Below are positions 33,084 through 63,980 of a stretch of 64,000 bases of DNA, piece after piece; position 1 is the first letter of the stretch, and each line of letters starts with the position of its first letter. Position numbers and translations under genes: made by a program. Under the pieces are notes generated by a model, which saw only the letters and a program-made list of their open reading frames with translations, searched no databases and was not told where the DNA came from. The stretch covers positions 160,001 through 224,000 of IMG/VR virus record IMGVR_UViG_3300013121_000005; one strand, 5' to 3'. Source of the stretch: a virus (taxonomy: Duplodnaviria > Caudoviricetes).

Positions 33084-33965
33084 ATGCCCATAACACCGAA
33101 GAAGGCCAGTCTTGTCGATCAATTCATCGCTGCCAAGGTGAAGGATCGGTACACAATGGCCAAGGAAGCTGATGTGAATGACTATTCTAGCTCACTCCGC
33201 CTACTGAAGGCAGCGGATGCAGAGATTGCTAGTTTACTTACATTGACTCACAAGTATGAGTCTGCTGCCAAGAAGGCTTTTGACGACTTTGAGGAGGCTG
33301 CTACTGAGACCCTCCCTAGGGAGCTGGAAAAGATTGGGGTCCCCTCCAAAAACCTTCAGCGTTACTTTACTCAGATAGCCAATCTGCTCCAAACAGTAAA
33401 AAAGGGGCACCCTCTTCGAGCCTTCAGCTTCAAGAGTGAGTCTCCTGTCGCTAAGGTCCAAAAGGTCCTAGCAACCATTGGTAAGGCGATCTTGAAGGAA
33501 AGTGGGGCGGGGGCAGCAATAGTCAAGCCTGCTTTGGCCACTCACATATTCCAGAAGAGCATTTCTTCTCCCCTTGGACGCCTTAAGGACATTTGTGCTG
33601 ATTGGTATGCAGCAGTCCTAGAGGCTTCGAGTATTATCGAGAAGAGCGTTACCAAGGGTTCCATTTCGGAGGAACCTCATCGGATTGGTTTCGGGGATGA
33701 CGCTGAGTTCGACAGGTATGCTAAAGCTCAGCGGGAATTCGCTGCGGAGGCGAAAGACTTGTCTGACTTGCTCCGACACTGCGCTATTGGGTTGCCGTTG
33801 GCATCTTCTGGATTTGAGGATTGTGAGGATGTTGGTCTTTGTCTCAAGACAATGGCGAAAACGAGTTCGGATTTGATCCAGACTCACCTGGATTTCGGAA
33901 AGCGGTGGGGAGATTACCGAGCGAAGCTCCAGGATAGACAAGAGGGGCAATCGTCTCTATTCTAA
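33084..33965 (+). CDS. Helical hypothetical protein with N-terminal KKA...IAAKVKDRY...KEA tag-like motif
   Basis: 293-aa ORF with SD. N-terminus resembles the motif shared by the 54-64 kb proteins. Confidence 0.65.
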   Translation: MPITPKKASLVDQFIAAKVKDRYTMAKEADVNDYSSSLRLLKAADAEIASLLTLTHKYESAAKKAFDDFEEAATETLPRELEKIGVPSKNLQRYFTQIANLLQTVKKGHPLRAFSFKSESPVAKVQKVLATIGKAILKESGAGAAIVKPALATHIFQKSISSPLGRLKDICADWYAAVLEASSIIEKSVTKGSISEEPHRIGFGDDAEFDRYAKAQREFAAEAKDLSDLLRHCAIGLPLASSGFEDCEDVGLCLKTMAKTSSDLIQTHLDFGKRWGDYRAKLQDRQEGQSSLF

Positions 33966-34630: not shown

Positions 34631-34865
34631 AGTTAGGTTTTGGACGGGCAGGCCATCCGCCAACCCCTAACTTCTAGGTCTTGGGGTGGCTTCCAAGCAC
34701 TAGAACCCTTGACTGGAGTAGCTACCAGTTGAGGACATCCGGGTGAGACCGGATAGTCCCGGGTATACCGCAGGGCCAGAAGGGTCCTGACGGGTGACCG
34801 GAAACAGACAAATGCTCCCGTGGCGGTGGGCCCAAAAGGGGCAGGATCGAGACCTGCCGGGAGCC
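34631..34865 (+). ncRNA. Candidate structured ncRNA (about 235 nt): five hairpins followed by a tRNA-like element
   Basis: Stems: AGTTAGG/CCTAACT (34631-34672), TCTAG..CTTGGGG/TTCCAAG..CTAGA (34673-34704), CCTTGACTGG/CCAGTTGAGG (34707-34734), ATCCGG/CCGGAT (34737-34754), CCGG..CAGGGCC/GGTCCTG..CCGG (34759-34801). Then GCTCCCG/CGGGAGC acceptor plus GCAGG-ATCGAGA-CCTGC T arm, and a T-tract. Confidence 0.6.
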
Positions 34866-34893
34866 TCTTTTTATGTATGCGCGACCCCGCTTT

Positions 34894-34899
34894 GGTGTA
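34894..34899 (+). promoter_or_regulatory. GGTGTA motif (candidate middle/replication-gene promoter)
   Basis: TTTGGTGTATAGT with a 13-nt spacer to an SD-less ATG. The hexamer recurs at 38087, 45020, 45737, 49674 and 55719. Confidence 0.55.
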
Positions 34900-34912
34900 T
34901 AGTTTCCCCCTC

Positions 34913-37900
34913 ATGAGTGAGGATCGAGCCAAGCAAATCTACGAGCATCTTCTTAAGGTTCGGGCCTCGAAGACTCTAGAGTTGAAACCGACCCCGATGT
35001 TCCGCCAGGAGATCGTGGGCCTAGATGGGCAGCCTCAACCCTTCCGGCTTCGGTATTACCAGGCGCAGGGCATCTACCACCTGCTCCTAGTTAACCGGAT
35101 GGTTCTTGGTGACGGCACCGGTTTGGGCAAGTGTGAGGTTCGGGGTACGATGATCCTTTCTTCGGAAGGGCTTGTGCCGATCGAGTCCTTTGCGCCGACA
35201 TCCTTCGACACTGGCCGACCAGAAGAGGGCTTCTATGACCTTGATCGTGAGGTCTCCGTCTGGACAGGCCGACGAATGGCGCCGGTCTCTCGTTTCTACT
35301 GGAGTGGAAAGAAGCCGACGAACAAGCTCACGACTCGGAATGGTTACCAAATCGAGGGATCGCTTGTTCACCCCGTGCGTGTTCGTGATGAGCACGGAGA
35401 ACACTGGAAAGAACTTAGCACCGTCCGGGAAGGGGACTTCCTCTGTGTGGATCGGTCTGAAGCCCCTTTCCCAGAGCGTGAACCTGCGATCACATTCGAC
35501 ACCTCAACGCTGGCTGCAAATGCGAGGGCGTACCAGTACCCAACGTCCTTGACCCCGGAGTTGGCGACACTCCTTGGTTACATCGTCGCGGAGGGCCACG
35601 CCCGGAAGTATGGGGTTACCGTCACCCAGTTTCGTGACTTGAACCCAGAGCCGCATGATGAAATCCGCAGGCTATTTCAAGGCGTCTTCGGGTGGGAAGG
35701 TAATTTCAACGACCTTGACCATGACACAGCAATCAAGGTGTCGAGTATCGGCATCCGGGAATTCCTTCGAGCCGTGGGGATTGGAGACGAGCTTTCGCGC
35801 GGTAAGTGTGTGCCGGAAGTCATATTCCGTGGGACTCGTGAGTCCATTCGTGGGTTCCTGTCGGCTCTCATTGAAGCGGAGGGGTCTGTCGCAGAGGGTG
35901 GGGTTGAGTTCTCGTCAGCTTCAGCAACCCTCGCCCGACAAGTACAACTTCTTCTGCTTCGCTTTGGGGTGGTCTCTGCACTGTCAGAGAAGCGTATCAA
36001 GGGCAACGACCACATTTACTGGCGTCTAACCTTCTTCAGCGACTCCGCACGCATCTTTCATGATCAGATCGGATTCCGATCTGATCGGAAGACAGAGGCC
36101 CTTCGGAATAGTTTTTCGACTACTTCCAATCCGAACAAGGATCTTATCCCTCATGCGGCGGGCCCCGTGGGTGCCCTCAAGGCTCGGATCTTGGAAGCCA
36201 CCTCGCGTTCGGGGGCAAATGAGAACCGTAAGGGTTCAGGGATCAAGCAGTTCGGAGAGACTTTCCAGAGTACCTTGAAGCACATTTTGAATGGATATCG
36301 AAACCCGAGCTATGCGTGGCTTGGAAAGCTTCTAGAAGTTGCATATGCTGTTGGGGTTTCGGCGACGCCAGAATATGCAGCGGTTCTCGCTTTGACTGAA
36401 CGTCGTTTTTTCTACGACCCAGTGGTGAAGGTCGAGCGAGGCGAAGCCGAGGTGATGGACATCGAGGTCGACGATCCCGAGCATTGCTACATTGCGAATG
36501 GGCTTCTTAGCCACAACACTCTCCAGGCCATTGGGGCACTCTGCTACCTCTGGGAGCGTGACCCCGAGATCAAGCCGATCGTTGTATGCCCCAAGAGCGC
36601 CATTAGGCAGTGGGCATCCGAGGTCGAGAAATTCACTCACGGGGTTCAGACCTTTGTGGTCTCAGGGTCCCAGGAACAGCGAAAGGCCACCTACAAAACT
36701 TGGGCGTCGGCCCCTTCTGGGCCTAACGACCCCAAGTCGATCCTGATCGTCAACTACCACCTTCTCGTCCGGGACTGGGACCATGGGATTGTCAAGCACG
36801 CCCCACCCGAAGGCGCCAAGCATGGCACTCAACCAGTCGCAGGTCGAGGGCTTCTAGACGAACTAACTTTTCGGCTTCCCAAGGTCGTTACCATCTTCGA
36901 CGAGGCGACGGCCTTCAAGAACCCAAGCACGAAAACCCACCAGACGTGCCGGTTCCTCTCGGAGCGGTCGAAACGATGTTGGGGGCTCACGGCGACCCTC
37001 TTGAAAAACAGCCTCATCGAGGGGTTCGGCATCTACAAGGTCATCCGCCCCGAGACCTTCGGCTCCAAGACCGCCTTCCTGAACTCGTACTGCGTCACCG
37101 AGCTTCAGCGGGTGAAAGGTGGGGCCAAGGTGCCCATCATCGTCGGGTACCGGAACCTTTCCGACTTCCGGGCAACCATCGACAAGTTCTTCTATGGGCG
37201 GCCCAAGCACCTTGTGAGTGACGAGCTGCCAGCTCTTACCACAAGGGAGGTCCTTTGCGAGCTGACCCCAGCCGAGGATCGGAAGTACGCGGAAGCTCTC
37301 AACGGCATCCTGGAGGTTGGGAGTGGCGACCTGAAAGACTACCGTGAGACAAAAGAGCTAACGAGTCTTATCTACTGTCAGGAGGTCGTCGATTCGATAG
37401 CCCTTCTTGGATTTGACGAAGAAGGTCTTGAGGGCTCTTTTTCCGGCAAGAGCGCAAAAGAGCAGGCTCTTTTGGATTTGGTCTCGGAAGAATTCGCGGA
37501 TGAAAAGGTTATCGTATACACTCGATTTGAGAAGCTCGTAACTAGACTGCAAAAGCTGCTAGCGGCGGAGCGTATCAAGAGCGTGCGCATCACGGGTAAG
37601 GAAAAAGACCACGAACGAAAGAAGAATCAGGACGCCTTCCAGAATCTCGAAAGCAATGTCAAGGTGGTATTCATCACGGACGCTGGATCAGAGGCTATTA
37701 ACCTCCAAGCGGCAGTGGGGATGATCTTCTTTGATTCGCCATGGTCTTGGGGGCATTACGTTCAACTCATTGGGCGTATGATTCGGATTGGGTCGCCTCA
37801 TCAAAATGTACTCGCTGTCCATCTTATTGCGGAGCGCCCAAACAAGGATAGCTCCAAACGAGAGACCATTGACCATAAGGTCATCAAGAAGCTTCGGAAG

Positions 37901-38020
37901 AAAAAGGGGCTCATTGACCAGGTTATCGGGGAAGCAGCCGTTGGGGCTCTCAAGTTTGAGCGGTCTGAAAGTGACCTTCGGGATCTCTTCACGTCCTTGC
38001 GCGAGGACGTGAAGAAGTAA
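34913..38020 (+). CDS. SNF2-family helicase/ATPase with intein
   Basis: LRYYQ, GDGTGLGK|T, IVVCPKS..QW..E, IFDEAT, GLTAT, KVIVYT, AGSEAINLQ, QLIGRMIRIG. ATG 34913 is preferred to GTG 34820, which runs through the structured RNA. Confidence 0.9.
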   Translation: MSEDRAKQIYEHLLKVRASKTLELKPTPMFRQEIVGLDGQPQPFRLRYYQAQGIYHLLLVNRMVLGDGTGLGKCEVRGTMILSSEGLVPIESFAPTSFDTGRPEEGFYDLDREVSVWTGRRMAPVSRFYWSGKKPTNKLTTRNGYQIEGSLVHPVRVRDEHGEHWKELSTVREGDFLCVDRSEAPFPEREPAITFDTSTLAANARAYQYPTSLTPELATLLGYIVAEGHARKYGVTVTQFRDLNPEPHDEIRRLFQGVFGWEGNFNDLDHDTAIKVSSIGIREFLRAVGIGDELSRGKCVPEVIFRGTRESIRGFLSALIEAEGSVAEGGVEFSSASATLARQVQLLLLRFGVVSALSEKRIKGNDHIYWRLTFFSDSARIFHDQIGFRSDRKTEALRNSFSTTSNPNKDLIPHAAGPVGALKARILEATSRSGANENRKGSGIKQFGETFQSTLKHILNGYRNPSYAWLGKLLEVAYAVGVSATPEYAAVLALTERRFFYDPVVKVERGEAEVMDIEVDDPEHCYIANGLLSHNTLQAIGALCYLWERDPEIKPIVVCPKSAIRQWASEVEKFTHGVQTFVVSGSQEQRKATYKTWASAPSGPNDPKSILIVNYHLLVRDWDHGIVKHAPPEGAKHGTQPVAGRGLLDELTFRLPKVVTIFDEATAFKNPSTKTHQTCRFLSERSKRCWGLTATLLKNSLIEGFGIYKVIRPETFGSKTAFLNSYCVTELQRVKGGAKVPIIVGYRNLSDFRATIDKFFYGRPKHLVSDELPALTTREVLCELTPAEDRKYAEALNGILEVGSGDLKDYRETKELTSLIYCQEVVDSIALLGFDEEGLEGSFSGKSAKEQALLDLVSEEFADEKVIVYTRFEKLVTRLQKLLAAERIKSVRITGKEKDHERKKNQDAFQNLESNVKVVFITDAGSEAINLQAAVGMIFFDSPWSWGHYVQLIGRMIRIGSPHQNVLAVHLIAERPNKDSSKRETIDHKVIKKLRKKKGLIDQVIGEAAVGALKFERSESDLRDLFTSLREDVKK
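35132..36517 (+). mobile_element. Intein with LAGLIDADG homing endonuclease (462 aa) in the SNF2 Walker A
   Basis: Begins with C after GLGK, ends ANGLLSHN followed by T. LLGYIVAEG and FLSALIEAEG endonuclease motifs. Confidence 0.93.
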
Positions 38021-49710: not shown

Positions 49711-50361
49711 ATGTTCAAAACTGGCAGCCCTAACCTCAACAAGCTTCTTCCGAACGGTGGGTTTCCTACGGGTGGGTTGTCTCTTATCACTTCAGACGAG
49801 CTTAAAGACGAAGACAATGATGTAAACCTATCCCTCTTGTTGTTGTCCGTCGCCAAATGTGCGGGTAGGAAACAAGTACACGTTCACTACCTTGATTGCT
49901 TGCGCCTATACGAAAAGAGTAGGGCAACCAAGGGTATCCCTAACCTCCAAATGTATTGGCCTGAGTCCCTTGATGATTGCTTGGACTTAGCACTTGCCGC
50001 TGTAGAAACTGTAGGAAATAGCGTAAACCTTGTGGTTCTTGATTCCCCTAATGCTCTACCCGCTAAGCGAGGTCGAATCGTTTCCCTCGTGGGGAAGGCT
50101 ACTAACTGGTTAGCAAAGACCAAATCCTTGCTCAGTAGGTACCCTAAAACTGGGGTTGTCATTGGGCTGGGCCCCATTGGGGACTACAATCACCTCATTG
50201 AGAATGAGGCGATTGTAGCACTTTCGTTGAGTGCGGGGGGCCACATTAGAGTGCATAAGCCCAAACAAGGGGTGTGTCGTATCCTGGCAACAGAACGTGG
50301 TCTCAAGGACCTTTTGATTGAGCCAACTCCCATTGCCCGAAGTCGGTATGACCTGATTTAG
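49711..50361 (+). CDS. Inactive RecA-superfamily protein
   Basis: KTGSPNLNKLLPNGGFPTG and VNLVVLDS (Walker B region), but Walker A is replaced by an acidic stretch. Confidence 0.6.
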   Translation: MFKTGSPNLNKLLPNGGFPTGGLSLITSDELKDEDNDVNLSLLLLSVAKCAGRKQVHVHYLDCLRLYEKSRATKGIPNLQMYWPESLDDCLDLALAAVETVGNSVNLVVLDSPNALPAKRGRIVSLVGKATNWLAKTKSLLSRYPKTGVVIGLGPIGDYNHLIENEAIVALSLSAGGHIRVHKPKQGVCRILATERGLKDLLIEPTPIARSRYDLI

Positions 50362-50367
50362 GTCCTA

Positions 50368-50823
50368 ATGACTGTCCTAATGACTGCCCTACCCTTCAGT
50401 ATGACTTGGGGTCCGGTCCTGCTTACGACCGTCATGTTGGAAAAGGCAACTAAGGATGCTTTAAGTCTAGAAGGGTGTGTCATTGTTATTGGCTGTACTA
50501 GAGCCCACTCTAACGAGTTAGGTCACCAACTTACAGCTAAGTTACTTGAGGTTCCTGGTACTCAAATACTCAGTCGAGGGTGCAGTGGGGGAGATATTCT
50601 TTTTAACTCAGCCAGTAAGAAGGAAGGAGAGATTTGGGTTGTCACTGACTACTCCACCTTCTTTGGGAAAGAAGAGACTTGGGTTACCTCTGAGTACCTT
50701 CAGAAAAAAGTCCGAGGGCGAAAGCTAGCCTCGCTATTCCTTCTTAGCGGTTCGTCTGGGTGGAGGAGAGGGTGTCCTCAACCCCCTCCCAAAACACGGT
50801 ATGAGCTTCTCTTAGGCACCTAG
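50368..50823 (+). CDS. Hypothetical protein
   Basis: Packed ORF. The start region carries a 12-bp duplication gtcctaatgact x2. Confidence 0.55.
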   Translation: MTVLMTALPFSMTWGPVLLTTVMLEKATKDALSLEGCVIVIGCTRAHSNELGHQLTAKLLEVPGTQILSRGCSGGDILFNSASKKEGEIWVVTDYSTFFGKEETWVTSEYLQKKVRGRKLASLFLLSGSSGWRRGCPQPPPKTRYELLLGT

Positions 50824-53490: not shown

Positions 53491-54231
53491 ATGAAGCTAG
53501 CTGCTGTCCAATTCGCCCCGGGCTTCAAAGAGATTGCTCGGAATACTAGCCGAATAGTTGAGCTTGCAACAAGAGCTGCAATGCAAGGGGCAAAATTGAT
53601 TGTCTTCCCTGAATTGGCCACTACAGGCTATTCGTTCATGGGTCCAGAGGAGGCAGCCCCATTTGCAGAGACCATTGGGGACTTTTCCAAGGGGAGTCAA
53701 TACTCTTTGCTCAGAGTCGCCGAGACCTTCAACGTAGCCATTGTGTGGGGCTTGGTCGGGAAGTCTGGGAACGGGTCACTTTACAACACTCAGATGTACG
53801 TAGATCCGAATGGTAGGTATGAGTCCTACTTCAAGATCAATCTATGGGGCAATGACTTTCTCTGGGCTTCAGAGGGAAGGGCTAACCCGCCAATCGTGCA
53901 TTGTGAAGTAACCAAGAAAAAGGTGGGGTTGCTCATTTGTCGAGACGTTCGGGACAAAGCAAGCGACGACTGGAAAAACTTCTACTCTCCAGGGGATGCA
54001 GATATTGTAGCCTTCTCCTCCAATTGGGGGGATGGTGGTTTCCCGGCAGTTTCTTGGGTGGACTTTGCTAAAGAGAACCGTACGGTTCTCGTCGTAGCTA
54101 ACCGCTACGGTCAAGAAACTTGTAATAACTTTGGCGAGGGTGGCGTGTGTGTCATTGAGCCCAAGGGTAAAGTCCATTGCCAAGGGCTTCAGTGGAATCA
54201 AGATTGCATTGTGTATGCGGAGACACCATGA
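53491..54231 (+). CDS. Nitrilase/carbon-nitrogen hydrolase superfamily amidase
   Basis: MKLAAVQF, LIVFPELATTGY (Glu), YFKINL (Lys), GLLICRD (Cys), ANRYG. Confidence 0.9.
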   Translation: MKLAAVQFAPGFKEIARNTSRIVELATRAAMQGAKLIVFPELATTGYSFMGPEEAAPFAETIGDFSKGSQYSLLRVAETFNVAIVWGLVGKSGNGSLYNTQMYVDPNGRYESYFKINLWGNDFLWASEGRANPPIVHCEVTKKKVGLLICRDVRDKASDDWKNFYSPGDADIVAFSSNWGDGGFPAVSWVDFAKENRTVLVVANRYGQETCNNFGEGGVCVIEPKGKVHCQGLQWNQDCIVYAETP

Positions 54232-54731
54232 GTAACCTTGTTCAGCGAGTTGTATCAAGATTTTCAAGAAGGTTGGCTGCTGCCTCCCCTCATGTGTGTT
54301 GGTACCGAGTAACCAAGTATAAGGGGGGTAATCGCTCAGTACTTGTATCGGTAGTAGCGGCTTGGAAGCCTACTTCTGACATCCCTATCAGAAAAGAGAC
54401 CCACAACAATTGGCTATCAGTGGAGTACTATGATGTCCCTGACGAGTTTTTCCAGCAGGTTGAGCGGGATTGCCGTCAGATTTCTGCGAAGGCCAAAGCA
54501 CTCGTGGAGGGGCTAGGGCTCAAGCTGCGGGAAAATCGGATGGAACCTCTCAAGAAGTGGGTAGAGAAATCTGTGAATTCCCTTACAGGTGACTATGTGA
54601 ACTTCTTCTGGTTGTCCGTTGAGGTCCCATTTGGGGCAGGTCAGAAGCAGAAGATCGAGGCTGTCACGTCAGCATTCGCAGAGCTGTCATCAGGTTTCTC
54701 TAATGTGATGCAAATTGAGCTAGAGAAGTGA
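54228..54731 (+). CDS. Hypothetical protein with N-terminal LVQRVVSRF tag
   Basis: ATGA overlap with the nitrilase stop and a GGAG SD. Confidence 0.7.
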   Translation: MSNLVQRVVSRFSRRLAAASPHVCWYRVTKYKGGNRSVLVSVVAAWKPTSDIPIRKETHNNWLSVEYYDVPDEFFQQVERDCRQISAKAKALVEGLGLKLRENRMEPLKKWVEKSVNSLTGDYVNFFWLSVEVPFGAGQKQKIEAVTSAFAELSSGFSNVMQIELEK

Positions 54732-54732
54732 T

Positions 54733-55725
54733 ATGGTGCCGCTCAAGGACCTAACGTTAGCGAAACGGGTAGCCTTCTTCTATCAAGATCGAATGGCTCG
54801 TCGGATCGCGGCTAGATTCTTGTTCTCAGCAAGTTTGTTGGACGGTCTGGTTCACCGGATGGATTCCTTGTTTGCGAACTATACGAACAAGGGAGCGGCT
54901 GAAGCAGCTAAGTGGTTCGAGGCGAATTTCCGTTTTGACATGTCCAAAACACCGCAAGGGCAGAAGGACCTCAAAAACAAGGCAGCCAAGTTCCATTGGT
55001 TTTTGCGGTCAGCGGCAGGTCTTGAGGCGTATGGTAAGGATGACCCAAACAATGAAGAGGGTTGGTCCCGAGCAGGCAAGGAAGCAGCTCGTATTTGGGA
55101 GCACGAGATCAAACCCTTGGTTGGGGATCTCGTAAGATACTTTACCGACGAAGGGGGTAAAATCGTCCCCAAGGAAGTGAAGGTTGGGGGAAACACCTAC
55201 CTCAACCTCGTCGGGTTCGACCAGAAGAAGCTGGGGCACTACGTTACGACGCTGGAGAGCCTCTGGGACGACCTGAAGGGTTGGCGCCGGAAAGCCCTTT
55301 CGGGGGGCCTCAAGGTCGTCTTGGCGAGCCCCAAGGAGTTTCATGGTACCGTGGGGGGCAAGTACAAGTCGTCGGAAGACCTCCTTCTCGTTCGTGCAAC
55401 CCCCCATGTTCTTAAACGAACGCAAGGTACCTACGGCGCCCTTGATTACATCCTCATCCATGAGCTAGGGCATCGCTACGAACGAAAGCAGAATCTTCCC
55501 GAGGACTTCGACAAATCCTACTGGTGGACCAGTACGTACAGCCGTAAAGAAGGGGAGAGCTTTGCAGAGCTGTTCGCTCTCGGGCACTTCAAGATCAAGG
55601 GGCAAGGCGCTGAAGCGACACAGGACCGTTTCGAGAAGCTCATGGCTGGACACGACAACATACCTCGGCCCGAATTGCCGGAGCATCTGCAAAAAGTCGT
55701 CCAATCAAAAGCTGGGGTGGTGTAG
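54733..55725 (+). CDS. Zincin-like metallopeptidase (HELGH...ESFAELF)
   Basis: ILIHELGHRYE and STYSRKEGESFAELFA. N-terminal LAKRVAFFY and MARRIAARF. Confidence 0.75.
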   Translation: MVPLKDLTLAKRVAFFYQDRMARRIAARFLFSASLLDGLVHRMDSLFANYTNKGAAEAAKWFEANFRFDMSKTPQGQKDLKNKAAKFHWFLRSAAGLEAYGKDDPNNEEGWSRAGKEAARIWEHEIKPLVGDLVRYFTDEGGKIVPKEVKVGGNTYLNLVGFDQKKLGHYVTTLESLWDDLKGWRRKALSGGLKVVLASPKEFHGTVGGKYKSSEDLLLVRATPHVLKRTQGTYGALDYILIHELGHRYERKQNLPEDFDKSYWWTSTYSRKEGESFAELFALGHFKIKGQGAEATQDRFEKLMAGHDNIPRPELPEHLQKVVQSKAGVV

Positions 55726-55734
55726 TTGTAGAGT

Positions 55735-58077
55735 ATGAGCGTTCCCATCTGCTGCGGTTTTTGTAAGCGTCCTCGAAACGAGGTGAAGAACCTCATTGCG
55801 GCAAACCCCGATGATGGGCCTTTCATCTGTAACCGGTGCATCGAGACGGCTTTTAAGGAGCTAGAAGCTGGCGCTAAGCGAGTAGAAGGGCTTGGGCAGA
55901 AAAAGGAAGAGCCCCAACTCCGTGCTCCGAAAGAAATCAAGGCGTACCTCGATGATTTCGTGATCGGTCAGGACAAGGCCAAGCGAGCGATTGCGACAGC
56001 GGTTTACAATCACTTCAAGCGCCGAAAGTTGAAGGACGCAAAGCCGGAGATCGAAGTCAACGGCAAGAGAGAAGAGGTGGAGGTAGACAAGGCGAACATC
56101 CTTCTCCTTGGTCCCTCAGGTTGTCATCGTAAAGGCCAGCTTGTCCTGATGTACGATGGTACCTTCAAGGCTGTTGAAGATATCCAGATCGGCGACCTTC
56201 TCATGGGGCCGGACAGTACGCCCCGATCGGTGCTGGAGCTGCACCGGGGCGTGGAGAACATGGTCGAGGTCATCCCATTCAAAGGAGAACCGTGGGTGGT
56301 TAACGAGGGGCACATTCTCACGATTGTCCGGACAGCCTACAACGGGGGTTCCGGGTACCGCTCCGTCAACGAAGTTAAGGATGTGGCTTTGCGTGAATAC
56401 CTTGCTTGGTCCCGTACGCAGAAGGCTTGCCACAAGCTCTTCCGTGTTCCGGTAGACTTCAAGCCTATCGGGCCATTGCCGCTCGATCCGTACTTCCTTG
56501 GAGTGCTCCTCGGGGACGGCTCTCTTGCCGTATCTCCTCGTGTGACGACGGAAGACCCTGAGATTCTTCGTGAGTTGGAAGACCAGGCAAGTCGATTTGA
56601 ACTTCAAGTGGTGAAGTACCAATACGACGCAAACAAGTGCCCTTCCTACGCCCTCACCTCTGGTAAGCGTGGCGGGAGTGCAGGCGAGGATCGGGTGAAC
56701 CCCATTGCGATGCGCCTGGCTCAGCTCGACTTGCTCAATGTGGTCGGAGAGGAGAAGTTCATCCCCCACGTCTACAAAACAGCCTCACGCGAACACCGTT
56801 TGGCGATTATGGCAGGGCTCCTCGATACAGACGGGTCCTTAGATGAGGCGGGGGTGGGTTTCGACTTCGTGAACAAGTCAAAGCAGCTCGTTGAAGACCT
56901 GGCCTTTATCGCACGTAGTCTTGGTTTCGCTGCGTATCCCCAAGCATGCAAGAAAGGGTGCCAGACCGGCGCCGAGGGCATGTACTACCGGATGTTCATC
57001 TCGGGTGACGTATCGAAGATCCCAGTACGCATTCCTCGAAAGAAGGCTCCTGTCCGGGAATCTTCTAAGGATGTTCTTCGGACGGGATTTAAGACTCGCC
57101 CACTGCCCCCCGAGGAGTATTTTGGATTCGTTCTCGACAGGGATCATCGTTACCTACTCGATGACTTTACGGTGACCCACAACACAGGTAAGACCCACAT
57201 TGCCCGTACGATCGCTCGCTTGCTGAATGTGCCCTTTTTCATCGGGGATGCAACTCGATTGACTCAGGCAGGGTACGTAGGGGATGACGTAGAAACCCTT
57301 CTTCAAGGTCTTGTGCAAAACGCAGGGGGGGACGTGGAGCGCGCCCAATGGGGCATCGTGTTCCTCGATGAGGTAGACAAGATCGCTCGCTCAGGGGGTC
57401 GCGATCGGGCAGGGTACCGAGACGTGACAGGTGAGGGAGTCCAACAGTCTCTCCTAAAGCTCCTCGAAGGTTCGAGGGTCAATGTCCCACGGGCCGGTAA
57501 GGCTGGGATGATGACTGCTTACGATGCAGTGGACACCACAAACATCCTCTTTATCTGCGCTGGTTCTTTCGCTGGGATTGAGCCAATCGTAGAAAAGCGA
57601 GTCAACAGCAAGGCTTCTCTTGGTTTCGGCTCGGCCTCTAGGGAGAAGTTCGACCCTACACAGACGTACTTGTCAGTGACCCCAGATGACTTGTTGAACT
57701 TCGGGATCATTCCTGAAATGCTTGGGCGCCTTCAAGTGGTTACCACTACGGTGGAGTTGGGGGAGGATGACCTGGTACGTGTGCTTCTTGAGCCTCGAAA
57801 CAGCATTGTCAAGCAATTTCAAGCGCTTTTCCAGCAGGATGGGATCTCTTTGGATTTTGAACCCGATGCGCTCCGAGCCGTAGCCAGGGCAGCGAAGAAA
57901 CGGAACACAGGAGCTAGGGCTCTACGGTCCATTGTAGAGGCAGCCCTGGAACAGCTCATGTTCGAGTTACCAGGAGACAAGCGAGTCCGACGAGTGTTGG
58001 TAACAGAGCAGACCATCGATACTGGAGTGGCTGTTTTGACCATGGCGGAGGAAGCTGAACATAGCCAAGAGGCATGA
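55735..58077 (+). CDS. clpX: ClpX AAA+ unfoldase with intein
   Basis: C4 zinc domain CGFC...ICNRC, VIGQDKAK, AVYNHFKR, KANILLLGPSG|TGKT, LTQAGYVGDDVE, DEVDK, RDVTGEGVQQ, LGF loop, TGARALRS. Confidence 0.93.
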   Translation: MSVPICCGFCKRPRNEVKNLIAANPDDGPFICNRCIETAFKELEAGAKRVEGLGQKKEEPQLRAPKEIKAYLDDFVIGQDKAKRAIATAVYNHFKRRKLKDAKPEIEVNGKREEVEVDKANILLLGPSGCHRKGQLVLMYDGTFKAVEDIQIGDLLMGPDSTPRSVLELHRGVENMVEVIPFKGEPWVVNEGHILTIVRTAYNGGSGYRSVNEVKDVALREYLAWSRTQKACHKLFRVPVDFKPIGPLPLDPYFLGVLLGDGSLAVSPRVTTEDPEILRELEDQASRFELQVVKYQYDANKCPSYALTSGKRGGSAGEDRVNPIAMRLAQLDLLNVVGEEKFIPHVYKTASREHRLAIMAGLLDTDGSLDEAGVGFDFVNKSKQLVEDLAFIARSLGFAAYPQACKKGCQTGAEGMYYRMFISGDVSKIPVRIPRKKAPVRESSKDVLRTGFKTRPLPPEEYFGFVLDRDHRYLLDDFTVTHNTGKTHIARTIARLLNVPFFIGDATRLTQAGYVGDDVETLLQGLVQNAGGDVERAQWGIVFLDEVDKIARSGGRDRAGYRDVTGEGVQQSLLKLLEGSRVNVPRAGKAGMMTAYDAVDTTNILFICAGSFAGIEPIVEKRVNSKASLGFGSASREKFDPTQTYLSVTPDDLLNFGIIPEMLGRLQVVTTTVELGEDDLVRVLLEPRNSIVKQFQALFQQDGISLDFEPDALRAVARAAKKRNTGARALRSIVEAALEQLMFELPGDKRVRRVLVTEQTIDTGVAVLTMAEEAEHSQEA
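56122..57183 (+). mobile_element. Intein with LAGLIDADG endonuclease (354 aa) in the ClpX Walker A
   Basis: CHRKGQLVLMYDG...LMGPDSTPR N-terminus, FLGVLLGDG and MAGLLDTDG motifs. Ends FTVTHN followed by T. Confidence 0.93.
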
Positions 58078-58104
58078 TGATCTGTTGATGATGAAGGTCC
58101 TGTG

Positions 58105-59316
58105 ATGGACCTTCATCTTATCCGGAATATCATTGCTAGGTTTAGGATCTCCAAGTCTATGGGAGATCCTAAGGAATTGGTACACGAGTATGAGCAAATG
58201 CTCAACAAGTTTACCCTTCCGGAAGACCAGGTAGCTTCGGCCAAAGCTGTGATGCAAAGGCTGATTTCCAATGGGCTGGGACAAGCGCAAGGTATCACCG
58301 ACCCAGGGTTTGATGCTGCTCACACTACATCCCTGCTAGCTAGTGTGAAGATTGAGCGAGGTTGGCCCTACGTTTACGACCCTGGCAGCAAGCTGTTTCT
58401 GGCTCTACTACAGTCCTATACGTTACCTGCGCCGCTTCGGAAAAAGATTGAGATTGCGTCTCGGCTATACCTAAAGGGTATGCGCCCAAGGTACAAAGCA
58501 AAAAGGCCCGGCCCAGAAAGGGACCTGGAATACCTCCTCTCCTATGAGAAAGTCATGGGGGTATGGCGAGAGCACCTTGCTTACGCTAAAGAGGCCATTG
58601 CTAAGGGCAAAGAGCACGCAACGGAAGGCGAAGGGGCCACAAAGCTCAATGTAGGGCCGTTTACCGTTGTCAACACGGGAGGTTTCTCTGAAGAGCAGAT
58701 GGGCTCGGTTGTTGAGGTTGTCAGGAAGGCTCATAGCCTTTTGCAAAGCTCAGGCTTCAATGAAGTGTGTTACGGTGAAATTCAAGTCACCAACACAATT
58801 CACAAGGGGTCAGTCTGGGCTTTCTACATGGTCACTAAGGACGAGTTGTTTGTTCGAGCCAACCTCAAACCCACCGTCGACATAGTTCACAACGTCCTGC
58901 ATGAATTAGGGCATCGCTACGAGCACAAGTTCCTCAAGGGGGGTGAAGCCCCCCTTTGGAGGCTCTACCATACGATGGAGTCTCAAGAGAGAACAAGTCT
59001 TAAGGATGCCAAATTTCCTGACCCTGGTACAACCTTGGTAAACAAGGGTCGTACCTTCATTGTCACCCATACTACTGCGGACTTCCGTAATGGATACGTA
59101 GTCCACCTCAAGATGGAAGGTGGGACTGCGAAGGTACCCCTAAGCTCGTTTTGGGCTCTCAAAGGTGAGAATCTCAAGGACCCAAGTCTTGGGTTTGTTA
59201 CCCCTTACGCGAAAAAGAGCCCTAACGAGAACTTTGCGGAGATGTTTGCCTTCTATTGTATGGGCAAACTGTCAGGGTCGCAGAAGGAAGCCTTTGAGCA
59301 AGCTATTGCGAAGTAG
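58105..59316 (+). CDS. Zincin-like metallopeptidase (paralogue of 54733..55725)
   Basis: VLHELGHRYE and TPYAKKSPNENFAEMFA. N-terminal LIRNIIARF. Confidence 0.75.
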   Translation: MDLHLIRNIIARFRISKSMGDPKELVHEYEQMLNKFTLPEDQVASAKAVMQRLISNGLGQAQGITDPGFDAAHTTSLLASVKIERGWPYVYDPGSKLFLALLQSYTLPAPLRKKIEIASRLYLKGMRPRYKAKRPGPERDLEYLLSYEKVMGVWREHLAYAKEAIAKGKEHATEGEGATKLNVGPFTVVNTGGFSEEQMGSVVEVVRKAHSLLQSSGFNEVCYGEIQVTNTIHKGSVWAFYMVTKDELFVRANLKPTVDIVHNVLHELGHRYEHKFLKGGEAPLWRLYHTMESQERTSLKDAKFPDPGTTLVNKGRTFIVTHTTADFRNGYVVHLKMEGGTAKVPLSSFWALKGENLKDPSLGFVTPYAKKSPNENFAEMFAFYCMGKLSGSQKEAFEQAIAK

Positions 59317-59323
59317 AGGGTTA

Positions 59324-59336
59324 GATTCTTTTGATA
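59324..59336 (+). promoter_or_regulatory. GATTCTTTTGATA motif (candidate late promoter)
   Basis: An identical 13-mer occurs at 27078-27090. Both copies have a 16-nt spacer to an ATG. Confidence 0.55.
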
Positions 59337-59352
59337 GGGAGGTCTGAGAGAG

Positions 59353-60678
59353 ATGCTGACTCCCAACCCCCCTCAAGTTGGTTCCAATCGAGAAACCTTT
59401 AAAGAGCGTTATGCTCGGTTGCTTCTCTCAATGTCTCTTCAGGAGGCCAAAGATATCCTAGGGTTCCCCCCTGGATACTCTCCGAGCCCTGACGAGATTG
59501 CCAAGGCTTATCGACGCAAGGCTTTGGAGAACCATCCGGATCGTGGGGGCAGTCACGAAAAGATGGTGGAGGTCAATGTCGCCAAGGACCTTCTGGAGGG
59601 TAAGGGGCGTGCAACTTGGACCCCTGAGCCTGCACCTCGTCGAGAGCGACCAAAGCCAACTCCAGTTGAATACGACGCAACCCTAAAAGGGGCCTCGTTT
59701 GAGGCCGCATGGGGTTCCGCAGGTGTCCCAGCCTCGGTAGAGTGGAAGTTTGTGAGCATCCCTGAGTGGTATTGGCCTAGCTCGAATCACCCAGGTCATC
59801 GAGTCTGGTGCCTCTATGGCCAGAACGAGCAGAAGCACGTCTTCCTTGCCTTCAAGGAGCGCGGAGAGAGTGCCGGGGGCGTCTGGCTGGATGACCAGGG
59901 GAAGCAGGCACCCCCTGGGACCGGCAAGTTCACGAAGATCGAGCAGGACTGGCAGTCGAGCCTCATCGAGATCCCGATCGCTCAGAACGTCGCCAAGATC
60001 GCGCCCAAGTACCTGAAAGAGGTTGGGACGGCGTGGGCGGATGGGGCCAAGCCGAAGCCCCCAAGGAAGTTTGTTGCGTGGCCCGGTGGTAAGCCAACAG
60101 AACAGATTATCAGCAAGATTCCCCGTTCAGGTGGAGCCGCTCTAAAGGACATCCTCGTGGGCACTGGCCTTCTGACGGACGAGGACCCCGCAGTGGCAGG
60201 CCGCAAGAGCGTGGTGGAAATCTTCACGAAGTACAGCAAAGAACGCTTCGAGCGGGCGAAGAAGTTGAAGGCCGAGGGTAAGCTCAAGGGGCTCAACAAT
60301 GCCCACCAGTACGACTTCTTCGTCCGGGTCAATGGGAAGACCGAGAAGCTCGAAGACGACACTATTTCCAAGATGGAGCGGTCCTTCATCCCATGGGTTC
60401 TAAGCTGGGAGATCAGCGAAGGGGCCCCGAAAAATCTCACCCGGATGCGAGGAGGTCGGCTCAAGTACGGCCCAGCAGACGCTATTCGGGAACTAGCTAA
60501 TTGCCTTACGACAGAACCCTCTTGGCTTCATATCGCTCTAGAGAAAGCTATCGAGGAGTATGAGGTCCCAGCTAAGGTGGCATACAGGGAACCTCTTCGA
60601 GCCTTTCATGACGCTCTGATCACCCGCAACGTGGTTGCGCGAGTTCTCTCGACCCGCAAGAGCAAGGTGAAGGTATAG
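59353..60678 (+). CDS. J-domain (DnaJ-type) protein
   Basis: EAKDILGF...EIAKAYRRKALENHPDRGGSHEKMVEVNVAKDLL with an intact HPD. C-terminal ALITRNVVARV. Confidence 0.85.
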   Translation: MLTPNPPQVGSNRETFKERYARLLLSMSLQEAKDILGFPPGYSPSPDEIAKAYRRKALENHPDRGGSHEKMVEVNVAKDLLEGKGRATWTPEPAPRRERPKPTPVEYDATLKGASFEAAWGSAGVPASVEWKFVSIPEWYWPSSNHPGHRVWCLYGQNEQKHVFLAFKERGESAGGVWLDDQGKQAPPGTGKFTKIEQDWQSSLIEIPIAQNVAKIAPKYLKEVGTAWADGAKPKPPRKFVAWPGGKPTEQIISKIPRSGGAALKDILVGTGLLTDEDPAVAGRKSVVEIFTKYSKERFERAKKLKAEGKLKGLNNAHQYDFFVRVNGKTEKLEDDTISKMERSFIPWVLSWEISEGAPKNLTRMRGGRLKYGPADAIRELANCLTTEPSWLHIALEKAIEEYEVPAKVAYREPLRAFHDALITRNVVARVLSTRKSKVKV

Positions 60679-60679
60679 G

Positions 60680-62101
60680 ATGGCTTCGCCAGTCAGGAGC
60701 AGAGATTTGCTTCGGGATTATGCCCGTACCTTAGTAGCTCTGGAGTTCTCAACCCCAGAGGCTCTTAAGGAGTACCTTCACGATCATCCGAAAGCTGACA
60801 AGAGCAAGCACACGGTCAAAAAGGATGAGGAAGGTCATCACGAAGAGGAGCCCAAGAAGAGTTGGAAGGAACGGCTCAAGGGTCTCAGTGAGAAAGCTTC
60901 GAGCCTTGTCCGAAATGCCCCCAAGGCAGTCAAGCAATTTATCGAGGATGATTCATTCCGTCGAAAGACGCTTATGGAGGCTCACAAAGCCCTAACTGAG
61001 GCGCCAGAGAAGATTGCGAAGAATGCCCTCAATACAGTCAAGCACGAAGTCAAAGAGTTCAAAGAGGCTGGACAAGGCATCGCCGCTGTGATGAGGGGGC
61101 AGAAGATGACCCCTCATCAAAAGAAAGCGCTTAAAACCGTAGCAACCCACATGGCAATTAGTGTTACTGCGGCGGCTTTGACGGCCTCAGGGCCTCTTGC
61201 TGCTGCGGGTATGGTGGGTAAGGGTCTCGTAAAACACACAGCTATGAAAGCTGTCTCCAATTTGCTTGGTCACACCCATATCCTCGAAGAGCTTGGGCAT
61301 ATTGGGCATGGCGTGAAGCACCTTATGGAGAAGCTTGCTGTAGAGGGTAAAGAGGCTGATCCAGAGGAAGTCCTTGGCAACCTTGTGCTAGCTGCTGTCG
61401 CCAAGGAACTTAAGGGTCTCAGTGACGAGGACATCAAGAAAGCTCTAGAGGGTGTGGAGGAGAAGACCATGGAGGAGAAGAGTATGGAGAAGAGTATGGA
61501 GAAGAAGGCTTCTCCTCTTCAAGAGTTCAAGGATGCTCTGATTGTCCGAAATGTCACAGCTCGATTCATGACTCGTGGGATGGAGCACCCATCGGAGGAA
61601 GCTAAGAAGAAGTACCTCCATGAGCACCCTGGGGCAGACCCCAAGAACCACAAGGTCAAGAAGAACCCAGATAGCACTGCTTCAAGTGGGATTGGCTCAG
61701 AGTCTACAAAGGCAGACTCTAGGTCGAAAGACCTTACAAAGAACCTCGACAGTATGAAGGCCCTCAAGCGCAAGGTAGACAATGCAGAGCCTTCCGCGAA
61801 GAAGAAGTTCGACCAAACCTACACCAAACTGTATGAGGGTGGGGAATCGTCAGCAAAAGCTGCTGAGAGGTTGGTCAAGAAGTTCGAGGATGATGACAGG
61901 AAAGATGTCCAAATCGCGGTTGAGCTTCTTTCAGACTCAGTGCGCCAATGGGAGCGTAACAAGTTTGATCACCATAAGCAGACTGCGGAGTTTACCCACA
62001 CCCACGAAAAACTTCGTCAAGCTGAACAAACCTTTGGCTACGCTATGAAGGTCAATGACTATATTGAGCTGCTTAACAAGACTCTCCAGGGAGATCGGTA
62101 A
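60680..62101 (+). CDS. Modular protein with two YLH(D/E)HP modules and an internal LIVRNVTARF tag
   Basis: Modules at 60743 and 61583. Hydrophobic Ala/Gly helix in the first half. Confidence 0.75.
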   Translation: MASPVRSRDLLRDYARTLVALEFSTPEALKEYLHDHPKADKSKHTVKKDEEGHHEEEPKKSWKERLKGLSEKASSLVRNAPKAVKQFIEDDSFRRKTLMEAHKALTEAPEKIAKNALNTVKHEVKEFKEAGQGIAAVMRGQKMTPHQKKALKTVATHMAISVTAAALTASGPLAAAGMVGKGLVKHTAMKAVSNLLGHTHILEELGHIGHGVKHLMEKLAVEGKEADPEEVLGNLVLAAVAKELKGLSDEDIKKALEGVEEKTMEEKSMEKSMEKKASPLQEFKDALIVRNVTARFMTRGMEHPSEEAKKKYLHEHPGADPKNHKVKKNPDSTASSGIGSESTKADSRSKDLTKNLDSMKALKRKVDNAEPSAKKKFDQTYTKLYEGGESSAKAAERLVKKFEDDDRKDVQIAVELLSDSVRQWERNKFDHHKQTAEFTHTHEKLRQAEQTFGYAMKVNDYIELLNKTLQGDR

Positions 62102-63717
62102 TGCCTGCTAAAGTCGATGAGTTGTTCAAGGAAGTCAAGAAAGACAACCCGTCGTACACAGATGAGCGGGCGTGGGCAACGGCTTGGTCGATCTACTGCA
62201 AGCATGTAGAGCCTGGATCAGACCATTGCTCTCGGCCTCCTAGCGAGTACTTGAAGGGCAAGAATGCGGCTGGGGCTTTTGCTAGGGCTTTGCTGGCTCG
62301 TGAGTTTGCAACTCCTGAAGCTCTGAAGGAGTACCTTCATGAGCACCCAAAGGCAGATAAGAGCAAGCACACTGTCAAAAAAGAGGAGGAGGGCAAAGGG
62401 GGTAAGAAAGAAGAGCCCAAAGCCCCAGCTAAGCCAAAAGGTCTCGATTTCGGAGACACCTCGAAGCTAGGTAAAGATGTTACCCAACCTGTCAAAGACC
62501 CTGATAAGCTGTTTGAAGAAGCTGCGAAAGCCCATGACCATCAGCTAGATTGGCTAAATCGAGGGAAAGGTCTTGACAAGGCGATTGGGGGCAAAGTCAT
62601 TCGTGCGGACAAGGGCGACACGATTGACTTTGATAAACCAGGGCCGATCATCCTCATTGGCCCGATGAAGAAGCAGGATCGTTCCAAAGAGAAGGTCGAA
62701 GCTGACTTTGGAGGGGACTGGTCTCGTCTGGGGGATATTGTCCGAGCGTCCGTGGCAGTAGACTCTTTCGATCAAGTGGAAGAGGTTCTAGCCCAACTAA
62801 AGAAGACTGGTTTGAAGCTCGCTCGTCAACCTAAGGATCGTTTTGACACTCCAACAAGCGCAGGTTACCGCGACGTAATGATCAATGTCGTGTACCCTAA
62901 TGGGCATGTGGGAGAGCTTCAACTCCACCTCAAGGGGGTCCTCAAGGCGAAGGATGCAGGGCACAAGTTCTACGAGGAAGTTCGCTCCATTGAGGGGAAG
63001 GCCAAGAAGGAAGGGCGAGATACCCTTACGGAGGAAGAACTCAAGGTCATCACGGAGGCTAACGACAAGATGAAAGCTCTCTACGATGAAGCTTGGGCTT
63101 CAGCTTCTAAGGCTAAGGGCAAGGGCAGCAAGGGTAGGAAAACCAAAGAAGCTGCATCCGGACCCACAAAGTATGACTACAATGGGCTACCTGCATATTG
63201 GGACAAAAATCGGTTCCCAATGGTCGTAACCCCTAAGGGCGAGAAGCCAATCTACGATATCGAGAAGTTCTTCCGAGAAGCAGATGAGGTTACGGAAGCG
63301 GAGTTCAAAGCTCTCAAAGATCGTAGTAAGCCAGAGAAGAAGTCCCCTGCTGGGAAGAAGAAGAGTGCAGTTATGAATGCCCTGATGGCTCGTAAAGTGG
63401 TGGCTCGGTTCTTGGCAGCGGATAGCCATAATCCAGACCCACTTTCTTTCAATGCTTTCCTTTCGGAGTTTAGGCAAGGAGAGAAGTCAGGCAAGGACTT
63501 GGCTTCAGCAGAAGATGCTGAAGCCAAGCTAGAGCTAGCTCAAGAGAAGGTATCTCAGGCTGCTACGGATCTACTTGAGCTTGCTCGACGCATCGACGCG
63601 ATTGCTCAACGAGGCCCTCTTGGGGTAAACGAAACGAAGCTCTCCGCTAAGTTGAGTGGAATCCTGTCTACACTCTTTTACCAGGCAGGAGTTGCTAAGG
63701 GACTTGGAAAGGCATGA
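62101..63717 (+). CDS. Multidomain protein: ChaB-like N-terminus, YLHEHP module, RelA/SpoT-like nucleotidyltransferase
   Basis: KKDNPSYTDERAWATAWSIY; KKQDRSKEK, LGDIVRAS, GYRDV, GELQLH, GHKFYE; LMARKVVARF. Confidence 0.75.
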   Translation: MPAKVDELFKEVKKDNPSYTDERAWATAWSIYCKHVEPGSDHCSRPPSEYLKGKNAAGAFARALLAREFATPEALKEYLHEHPKADKSKHTVKKEEEGKGGKKEEPKAPAKPKGLDFGDTSKLGKDVTQPVKDPDKLFEEAAKAHDHQLDWLNRGKGLDKAIGGKVIRADKGDTIDFDKPGPIILIGPMKKQDRSKEKVEADFGGDWSRLGDIVRASVAVDSFDQVEEVLAQLKKTGLKLARQPKDRFDTPTSAGYRDVMINVVYPNGHVGELQLHLKGVLKAKDAGHKFYEEVRSIEGKAKKEGRDTLTEEELKVITEANDKMKALYDEAWASASKAKGKGSKGRKTKEAASGPTKYDYNGLPAYWDKNRFPMVVTPKGEKPIYDIEKFFREADEVTEAEFKALKDRSKPEKKSPAGKKKSAVMNALMARKVVARFLAADSHNPDPLSFNAFLSEFRQGEKSGKDLASAEDAEAKLELAQEKVSQAATDLLELARRIDAIAQRGPLGVNETKLSAKLSGILSTLFYQAGVAKGLGKA

Positions 63718-63980
63718 GTCTTTCCCTCATCCGCCAAGTAGTTCGTCGGTTCATGGCGTTCAAGTACGAACCCAAGGAGACGAAGCAACACAAGGTAGAA
63801 AGGCTCTCCAAAGCTATTCGGGAAGAGACTGGAATTTCTCGGGGGCAAGCAGAAGCTATTGCTGATGCTTACATACGTGGACGAGAGATCGAACGATTAG
63901 CTATCCAGAAGGGTTGGCCCCTTGCGGATGGGATTGTGACCGGTCCTGATGGGGCGTTTGAACTGTCTAAGTCACTTTGA
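63714..63980 (+). CDS. Small protein with N-terminal LIRQVVRRF tag
   Basis: ATGA overlap with the previous stop. Confidence 0.7.
   Translation: MSLSLIRQVVRRFMAFKYEPKETKQHKVERLSKAIREETGISRGQAEAIADAYIRGREIERLAIQKGWPLADGIVTGPDGAFELSKSL

Follow-up and report, generated by a model that had tools for sequence, protein, structure and literature searches.

A nine-residue peptide with the consensus [LIM]-[IVA]-x-[RNQK]-[VI]-[AV]-x-R-[FY], often extended by L-x-A, recurs on proteins of about 13 families in an uncultivated huge phage. There is good support for its being a portable docking label that a single partner reads, and this is very probable. The phage is represented by one 363,484-bp IMG/VR virus record (IMGVR_UViG_3300013121_000005; 53% G+C, estimated 76% complete), of which bases 160001-224000 form the window analysed here, 64,000 nucleotides in length. 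The peptide (the tag, below) was recognized in a focal cluster of eight genes at 54.2-64 kb of the window; genes of the window are named by the window position at which they start, and positions in the whole record are marked as genome positions. The best single reading of the partner, a tentative one, is that it is the assembling phage head and that the prohead protease clips the tagged cargo. It is based on the order of genes, a single exchange of a module and site statistics that were devised post hoc.

Column by column, the tag consists of L/I/M, I/A/V, any residue, R/N/K/Q, V/I, A/V, A/T/S/R, an invariant Arg and F/Y; Leu is frequent after the tag, as is Ala three residues on. A strict regular expression matched 19 times in the open reading frames (ORFs) of the 363-kb record; 200 shuffled proteomes averaged 0.66 matches and never had more than 3. 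The motif instances listed in the original prediction were each found in place. Seven strict matches lie within 54.2-64 kb, in seven of the eight genes. The ClpX gene is the sole exception and, as had been claimed, neither it nor the replication genes of the window contain a strict match. The weakest of the listed copies (the first one in 54733 and the one in 33084) score about 10 on a position-specific scoring matrix (PSSM), a level at which 31 matches were obtained vs 6.6 in shuffles. A looser pattern confined to the first 35 residues detected 17 copies in this genome vs 0.5 expected. The tag had been presented chiefly as a property of the cluster. The cluster instances are real, but the tag is genome-wide, with about 16 N-terminal copies: at least 12 copies lie beyond the cluster, on both strands, and nearly all of these begin 3-9 residues past the start codon. 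A description of the motif was not found in a literature search.

The invariant Arg is encoded by CGG, AGG, CGA, CGC, AGA and CGT, and identical tag residues share a codon in only 32% of cases. Because all six codons serve the invariant Arg, selection acts on the peptide. A DNA or RNA motif was ruled out by the same scrambled codons and six Arg codons, and a Tat signal, which would need a hydrophobic region of 12-20 residues and an A-x-A site behind the twin arginine, was ruled out because what comes after the tag is polar or Pro/Gly/Lys-rich instead of hydrophobic. The tag appears to be a short amphipathic segment on a short tether, probably helical. Its helical hydrophobic moment is 0.46 vs 0.34 for shuffled tags, and the fold model of 58105 has a helix at residues 3-14, at low confidence (predicted local distance difference test, pLDDT, below 50).

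All-against-all BLAST with the tags masked resolved the tagged proteins into about 13 independent families. Their bodies had been described as largely unrelated, which holds for these families but not for every pair of proteins: 58105 is a paralogue of 54733, a J-domain paralogue of 59353 is located at genome 225709, and 60680 and 62101 share a second leader. Elsewhere in the genome the tag is found on an HD and CCA-adding enzyme, topoisomerase IB (topoIB), the second J-domain protein, three more zincin paralogues and several proteins of unassigned family. The bodies of 54733 and 58105 are predicted gluzincin metallopeptidases of M34-like type. Residues H266, E267, H270 and E375/E379 are invariant in seven family members, and the best fold match is anthrax lethal factor (LF; 1yqy, Z 10.4 over 158 residues, root-mean-square deviation 3.5), followed by the Pro-Pro endopeptidases PPEP-2 and PPEP-3 of family M34 (Z 9.0 and 8.7). 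By sequence, the family profile retrieved no PDB relative and the Pfam match to Peptidase_Mx1 was below its cut-off. The RelA/SpoT-like enzyme of the original prediction, in 62101, is backed by a sub-threshold Pfam match (PF04607, E 0.025, 15.3 bits vs a cut-off of 27). TopoIB is similar to the solved Deinococcus enzyme from residue 25 onward, and the tag is therefore an add-on to the fold. A 58-codon frame on the minus strand at genome about 348674-348805 (L014) starts with M-T-T-S-I-E-K-R-V-A-T-R-Y; it may be a tiny tagged protein or a truncated gene.

The coat protein of this phage is of the Bacillus phage G type. It is 83% identical to that of the uncultured LR745208, 47% to that of the cultured Tunturiibacter phage Tunturi_5 and 37% to gp27 of phage G, and more than 1,700 coat homologues are present in public data. 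In related huge phages, orthologues of tagged proteins have kept the tag, moved it between termini, or let one copy decay while another was held. In a comparison of topoIB across ten IMG/VR relatives, the clearly resolved orthologues (54-67% identity) all have an N-terminal tag. In G001 topoIB is tagged at both the N-terminus and the C-terminus, in LR745208 the tag is internal, behind a fused upstream domain, and two further relatives have long fused reading frames. The G002 orthologue of 54733 keeps the double tag of that protein. The G002 orthologue of 59353 is 74% identical over the last conserved domain and ends before any C-terminal tag; its N-terminus bears tandem tag-like repeats, one of which matches the regular expression. 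A whole-genome scan of G002 with the looser pattern found 11 N-proximal copies vs 0.67 expected. A degenerate DNA pattern of the tag core matched 7-14 times per genome in five related genomes vs 4-6 times when reversed, in every case with the higher count for the forward pattern, and many of the matches are N-terminal. LR745208 (485 kb) has kept divergent tags on its orthologues. The distant high-GC homologues of 58105 (L027, L028) have degenerate tags only, and ORF calling is unreliable there. The claim of a portable label under protein-level selection is thereby upheld: the tag occurs in about 13 families, is conserved in orthologues and moves among N-terminus, C-terminus and module junctions.

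Cleavage-like sites accompany the tag. The original prediction noted K-x-A beside many copies. In tagged proteins as a whole K-x-A is not enriched (52 observed vs 64.7 expected from composition), and within 20 residues on either side of the tag there are 8 vs 4.1 expected. Directly upstream of non-N-terminal tags, however, the association stands: in the 12 preceding residues K-x-A is found at 8 of 16 copies vs 1.57 expected (p about 5e-5), and it mostly abuts the tag in the register K-x-A-x. The K-T-A that had been added to this list from the N-terminus of 51756 adjoins no tag. After N-terminal tags, A-[ST] is present within 8 residues in 11 of 30 cases vs 1.78 expected (p about 6e-7), compared with 7% of untagged N-termini. 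Because K-x-A is upstream of non-N-terminal tags and A-[ST] is downstream of N-terminal ones, a candidate cut site lies on the body side of terminal tags, which is where a load-then-clip design would need it. Genome-wide, K-T-A-[ST] is over-represented (12 vs about 3.4 expected), and two such sites in the scaffold are conserved in three genomes; the K-x-A and A-[ST] signals appear to echo them. A gene at genome 122742-124835 has K-K-T-A-S followed by Y-S-Y-D-R at residue 442, and this point aligns with a relative's separate gene starting M-S-Y-D-Y-D-R. The latter is a second type of N-terminal leader, likewise behind a K-T-A-S junction.

The head module spans genome 79-98 kb, in the order large terminase, tagged topoIB, portal, a 962-aa protein, a 594-aa protein (genome 91021-92805), prohead protease, Gln-rich scaffold, likely decoration protein (called by position only) and coat. 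The 962-aa post-portal protein, located between portal and prohead protease, has a tag at residue 70 and K-T-A-S at residue 710. Its G002 orthologue contains an insertion exactly at the K-T-A-S junction, and this insertion is 64-70% identical to residues 41-296 of 60680. In G003 the 60680 module follows a canonical N-terminal tag. Because of this insertion and this tagged copy, the cargo module can be said to alternate between a free-standing tagged gene and a head-module protein. The large terminase (genome 79359-82718) is 1,119 aa long and probably holds an intein; a LAGLIDADG-like block is present in the G001 orthologue.

The prohead protease (genome 92958-94664) matches only the PHROG head-maturation-protease family and has no PDB relative by sequence. 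The assemblin Pfam model had no match in the record, an uninformative result since control genomes also gave none. A C-terminal extension of roughly 280 aa (residues 286-568 in this phage) is present on the protease in G000, G001 and G002 and has diverged in LR745208. Tagless Tunturi_5 and phage G have none, a correlation over six genomes. In G002 (204280-207222) the protease frame is 985 aa long, and the two halves of its protease domain are separated by about 400 extra residues that may be an intein.

The last nine residues of the coat (genome 96778-97650) resemble the tag in the tag-bearing clade, where they read L-T-R-[LMI]-V-[VI]-[TS]-R-[FVL]. In 120 close homologues L-T-R-L-V-V-T-R-F is the most frequent ending, and the G001 coat ends in a match to the strict pattern; Tunturi_5 and phage G have other endings. 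This likeness may represent mimicry, common origin or chance. An improbable elaboration would have the cargo tag imitate the coat C-terminal peptide, so that the enzymes enter the prohead via the coat's assembly partner (scaffold or protease extension) and are released from either end by bidirectional A↓S clip sites (arrow, point of cleavage). When the coat (42-row alignment) was modelled in complex with residues 1-36 of the tagged protein closest to the consensus, the ipSAE was 0.00, which, in a prediction made without control runs, speaks neither for nor against. A search for the reader by gene presence and absence returned 51 proteins common to four tag-bearing genomes and missing from tagless Tunturi_5, among them an actin-like protein (56-74% identity), and these are too many to choose between.

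If the partner is the head, one common receptor would read the tag, and this receptor would be part of the assembling structure: the scaffold core, the protease C-terminal extension or the coat. The tagged LF/PPEP-like zincins, J-domain proteins, RelA/SpoT-like protein, topoIB, HD/CCA-adding enzyme and post-portal protein would co-assemble into the prohead. The prohead protease would cut A↓S-type sites like the scaffold K-T-A-[ST], which N-terminal tags have on their downstream side and internal or C-terminal tags immediately upstream. Cargo would be released in this way, or fused modules separated. Entry into the host along with the DNA may then follow. Head loading with clipping is preferred because the 60680 cargo module was inserted in a relative's post-portal protein at such a site. 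The original prediction of head loading retains circumstantial backing from the tagged protein between portal and protease, the module at the K-T-A-S junction and the cleavage-like sites, but the cluster is not among late genes and no cultured relative is tagged.

Several points weigh against this reading. The post-portal protein is placed among head proteins by gene order, with no family or structural match: it gave no significant Pfam family, 50,697 phage records contained no match to it, none of its Atlas neighbours was usable, and a Mu-F domain was not detected in it. The A-[ST] and K-x-A statistics are post hoc, devised after the data had been seen, and they replicate weakly in the hold-out genomes G003 and G005 (A-[ST] in 4 of 15, p about 0.02; upstream K-x-A in 2 of 6 vs 0.37 expected). 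No cleavage motif keeps a constant spacing to the tag, the full [KR]-x-A-[ST] shows no enrichment after N-terminal tags (1 observed vs 0.5 expected), and an Ala/Ser/Thr-rich linker composition could mimic a cleavage-site signal. The focal cluster belongs to an operon in which it is packed, co-oriented, behind genes of replication and nucleotide metabolism and those for DHFR and nitrilase, away from the late genes. Finally, tag enrichment is missing from Tunturi_5 and phage G, the two cultured relatives that turned up, and therefore no cultured phage with a virion proteome bears the tag.

Docking may also take place away from the head. That the tag brings its bearers to a non-head structure, either one built by the phage inside the cell (an actin-like filament, a replication or translation factory) or a common host target, is unlikely, though topoIB, the CCA-adding enzyme, the J-proteins and the zincins could all act in the cytoplasm and the cluster is among non-late genes. 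The actin-like protein among the 51 clade proteins missing from Tunturi_5 also fits such a target, and tags in tandem, two or three together, suggest avid binding to a multivalent lattice, whatever its nature. No candidate structure was identified, however, and both the cleavage-like sites beside the tags and the exchange of a cargo module with the post-portal protein would be left unexplained. A chaperone hub is another candidate reader: a zinc-ribbon ClpX gene sits amid the tagged cluster. Here the tag would tether about 20 proteins to ClpX (of phage or host) or another such hub in the manner of the SspB tail, for timed unfolding, degradation or remodelling. The C-terminal, ClpX-binding tail of the adaptor SspB ends in L-R-V-V-K and resembles the tag core. 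Two J-domain proteins are in the tagged set, the tag works at either terminus, as a tether may, and tagged genes flank ClpX in G001, G002 and G003. This tethering is nevertheless improbable. The likeness to the SspB tail comprises four residues, no ClpP was found in the record, and most tagged genes are far from ClpX, on both strands. Zinc-ribbon ClpX is present in G000-G003, but its co-occurrence with the tag is broken by LR745208, which keeps divergent tags with no ClpX zinc-ribbon or AAA+ match, and by phage G, which has ClpX and no tag enrichment.

The amphipathic character of the tag raises the possibility of a membrane-binding helix that places its bearers at the host inner membrane. The raised hydrophobic moment, the basic residues on one face, the terminal position and the modelled helix of 58105 would all suit this role. 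It is nonetheless very unlikely, as the invariant Arg 8, Phe/Tyr 9 and Val/Ile 5 represent constraint beyond the needs of lipid binding, a segment of 9-12 residues with about five hydrophobic positions is short for an anchor, and neither a topoisomerase nor a tRNA nucleotidyltransferase has an obvious reason to be at a membrane. The chance is slimmer still that there is no common reader and that the leader reflects paralogue descent, recombination or a requirement of translation initiation. Paralogy does exist in the set (among zincins, five or six tagged proteins; among J-domain proteins, two), and a [DN]-A-L pre-motif on three non-N-terminal copies in consecutive genes suggests copying. Against this, about 13 families have no detectable similarity outside the tag, the scrambled codons, including all six for Arg, exclude an RNA or DNA signal, functional-looking tags are found at C-termini and junctions, and orthologues in which one copy is lost retain a different one.

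If the tag does serve to load heads, a clade widespread in soil and freshwater would pre-pack a varied enzyme kit for delivery with its DNA: LF/PPEP-like zincins, J-domain co-chaperones, an alarmone-synthetase-like protein, a topoisomerase and a tRNA-repair enzyme. A nine-residue label functional at either terminus would then offer an easy way to put foreign proteins into large capsids, and its presence in metagenome sequence would allow injected phage effectors to be predicted. Should something other than the head read the tag, about 20 proteins are still marked by it as having one partner in common.

Table 1. Genes of the focal cluster and one distant gene with a tag-like copy, in window coordinates.
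Gene	Position	Strand	Product and features	Tag (nt)
54228	54228-54731	+	167 aa, family not assigned; N-terminal tag at residues 4-12	54237-54263
54733	54733-55725	+	330-aa zincin-like protein with H-E-x-x-H; paralogue of 58105; double tag	54757-54783 (weak), 54793-54819 (strong)
ClpX	55735-58077	+	Zinc-ribbon and AAA+ domains; split by Hint/LAGLIDADG intein; untagged	
58105	58105-59316	+	403 aa; N-terminal tag; gluzincin domain at about residues 163-403	58117-58143
59353	59353-60678	+	441-aa J-domain protein; decayed N-terminal remnant, full C-terminal tag	60619-60645
60680	60680-62101	+	473 aa, two modules; tag at residue 288	61541-61567
62101	62101-63717	+	538 aa; internal tag at residue 429	63385-63411
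63714	63714-63980	+	88 aa; N-terminal tag	63726-63752
33084	33084-33965	+	293 aa; weak tag-like copy, K-K-A-S ahead of it	33126-33152

The eight same-strand genes of the cluster (Table 1) are tightly packed and partly overlapping. The ATG of 54228 overlaps the stop of the CN-hydrolase gene, and that of 63714 overlaps the stop of the gene before it. In 58105 the stretch between tag and gluzincin domain is a poorly modelled linker region, and the C-terminal tag of 59353 has V as its last residue. The ClpX intein comprises about 350 residues (Hint and LAGLIDADG) and is located in the AAA+ domain near Walker A; the G001 and G002 orthologues are without it.

Both 60680 and 62101 are composite, as had been proposed: their modules occur apart or in other combinations in relatives. 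Module A of 60680 (residues 41-263) is preceded by a decayed tag and a Y-L-H-x-H-P-x-A-D leader, and at the junction K-K-A-S (nt 61502-61513), the tag and a second leader precede module B. In 62101 a small N-terminal domain is followed by a decayed tag and leader (about residues 60-97), the RelA/SpoT-like region, the internal tag and a C-terminal module, and an in-frame Met is still present upstream of the internal tag, at the usual distance. Since this Met precedes the tag of 62101 and the junction of 60680 repeats that protein's own N-terminus (A-S-P, tag, leader), the two genes are read as fusions of once-separate genes, each of them tagged.

The leader itself is about 25 residues long and His/Asp-rich, has the core Y-L-H-x-H-P-x-A-D-x-x-x-H-x-V, begins 3-8 residues past a tag or decayed tag and matches no family. 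Its three copies in the genome, all in 60680 and 62101, are at window 60773-60799, 61613-61639 and 62332-62358. It is also found in P0005, P0006 and one G003 protein. P0005, a homologue of 62101, begins with a double tag followed by the leader. A search for tag plus leader retrieved only two outside proteins.

At least one baseplate-type gene is located within the first 34 kb of the window. The 34.8-53.5 kb region, directly followed by the cluster, encodes an intein-bearing SNF2 helicase, DnaB helicase, primase, DNA polymerase A, an AAA protein, DHFR and the CN-hydrolase. The intein of the SNF2-family helicase (window 34820-38020) matches Intein_splicing and LAGLIDADG_3. Two untagged genes (window 49711-50361 and 50368-50823) end in P-x-[TS]-R-Y-[DE]-L-[IL], this genome's other tag. 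There are 13 such C-terminal endings genome-wide, none of them on proteins with the N-type tag. By eye, no shared promoter-like word was seen upstream of tagged and head genes.

Among known systems, the T4 targeting peptide (CTS) of IPI-III and Alt (Mullaney and Black 1996, reviewed in PMC9026906) is similar in being a short, portable N-terminal peptide (about 10 residues) on unrelated proteins, associated with polymorphic cargo sets and with cleavage sites of the prohead protease, which are candidate sites in the case of the tag. In T4, foreign proteins are directed into the head by the first 10 residues of IPIII, which are removed afterwards (PMC9026906). The present phage, too, repeats one short N-terminal peptide across unrelated proteins, in about 16 copies and about 13 families. 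The two peptides have no sequence similarity, however, and the present tag also occurs at C-termini and junctions. The T4 peptide is immediately followed by L/I-x-E, whereas no strictly placed cleavage motif follows the tag; the protease is of phage G type, its candidate sites are A↓S-like, and packaging is putative.

Loading peptides of encapsulins and microcompartments are short amphipathic peptides on a flexible tether, at either terminus, by which various unrelated enzymes attach to the inside of a protein shell, and the tag may be of similar build. Encapsulin shells and the coat of this phage have the HK97 fold in common, but the tag consensus is unlike known loading peptides. No microcompartment shell gene (BMC-H) was detected in the record, where PF00936 matched only below threshold (13.7 bits), and the HK97-fold coat is the only shell encoded. 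Herpesvirus assemblin and prohead-protease maturation sites, (V/L/I)-x-A↓S, resemble the putative cut sites, which have Ala at P1 and Ser/Thr at P1', are conserved in the scaffold and also sit at module junctions. The post-portal protein recalls the polymorphic MuF-type head proteins, in which a large protein encoded directly after the portal has a variable module that differs among relatives. In MuF proteins this module is a C-terminal toxin domain, whereas in G002 it is an internal insertion at a K-T-A-S-type junction.

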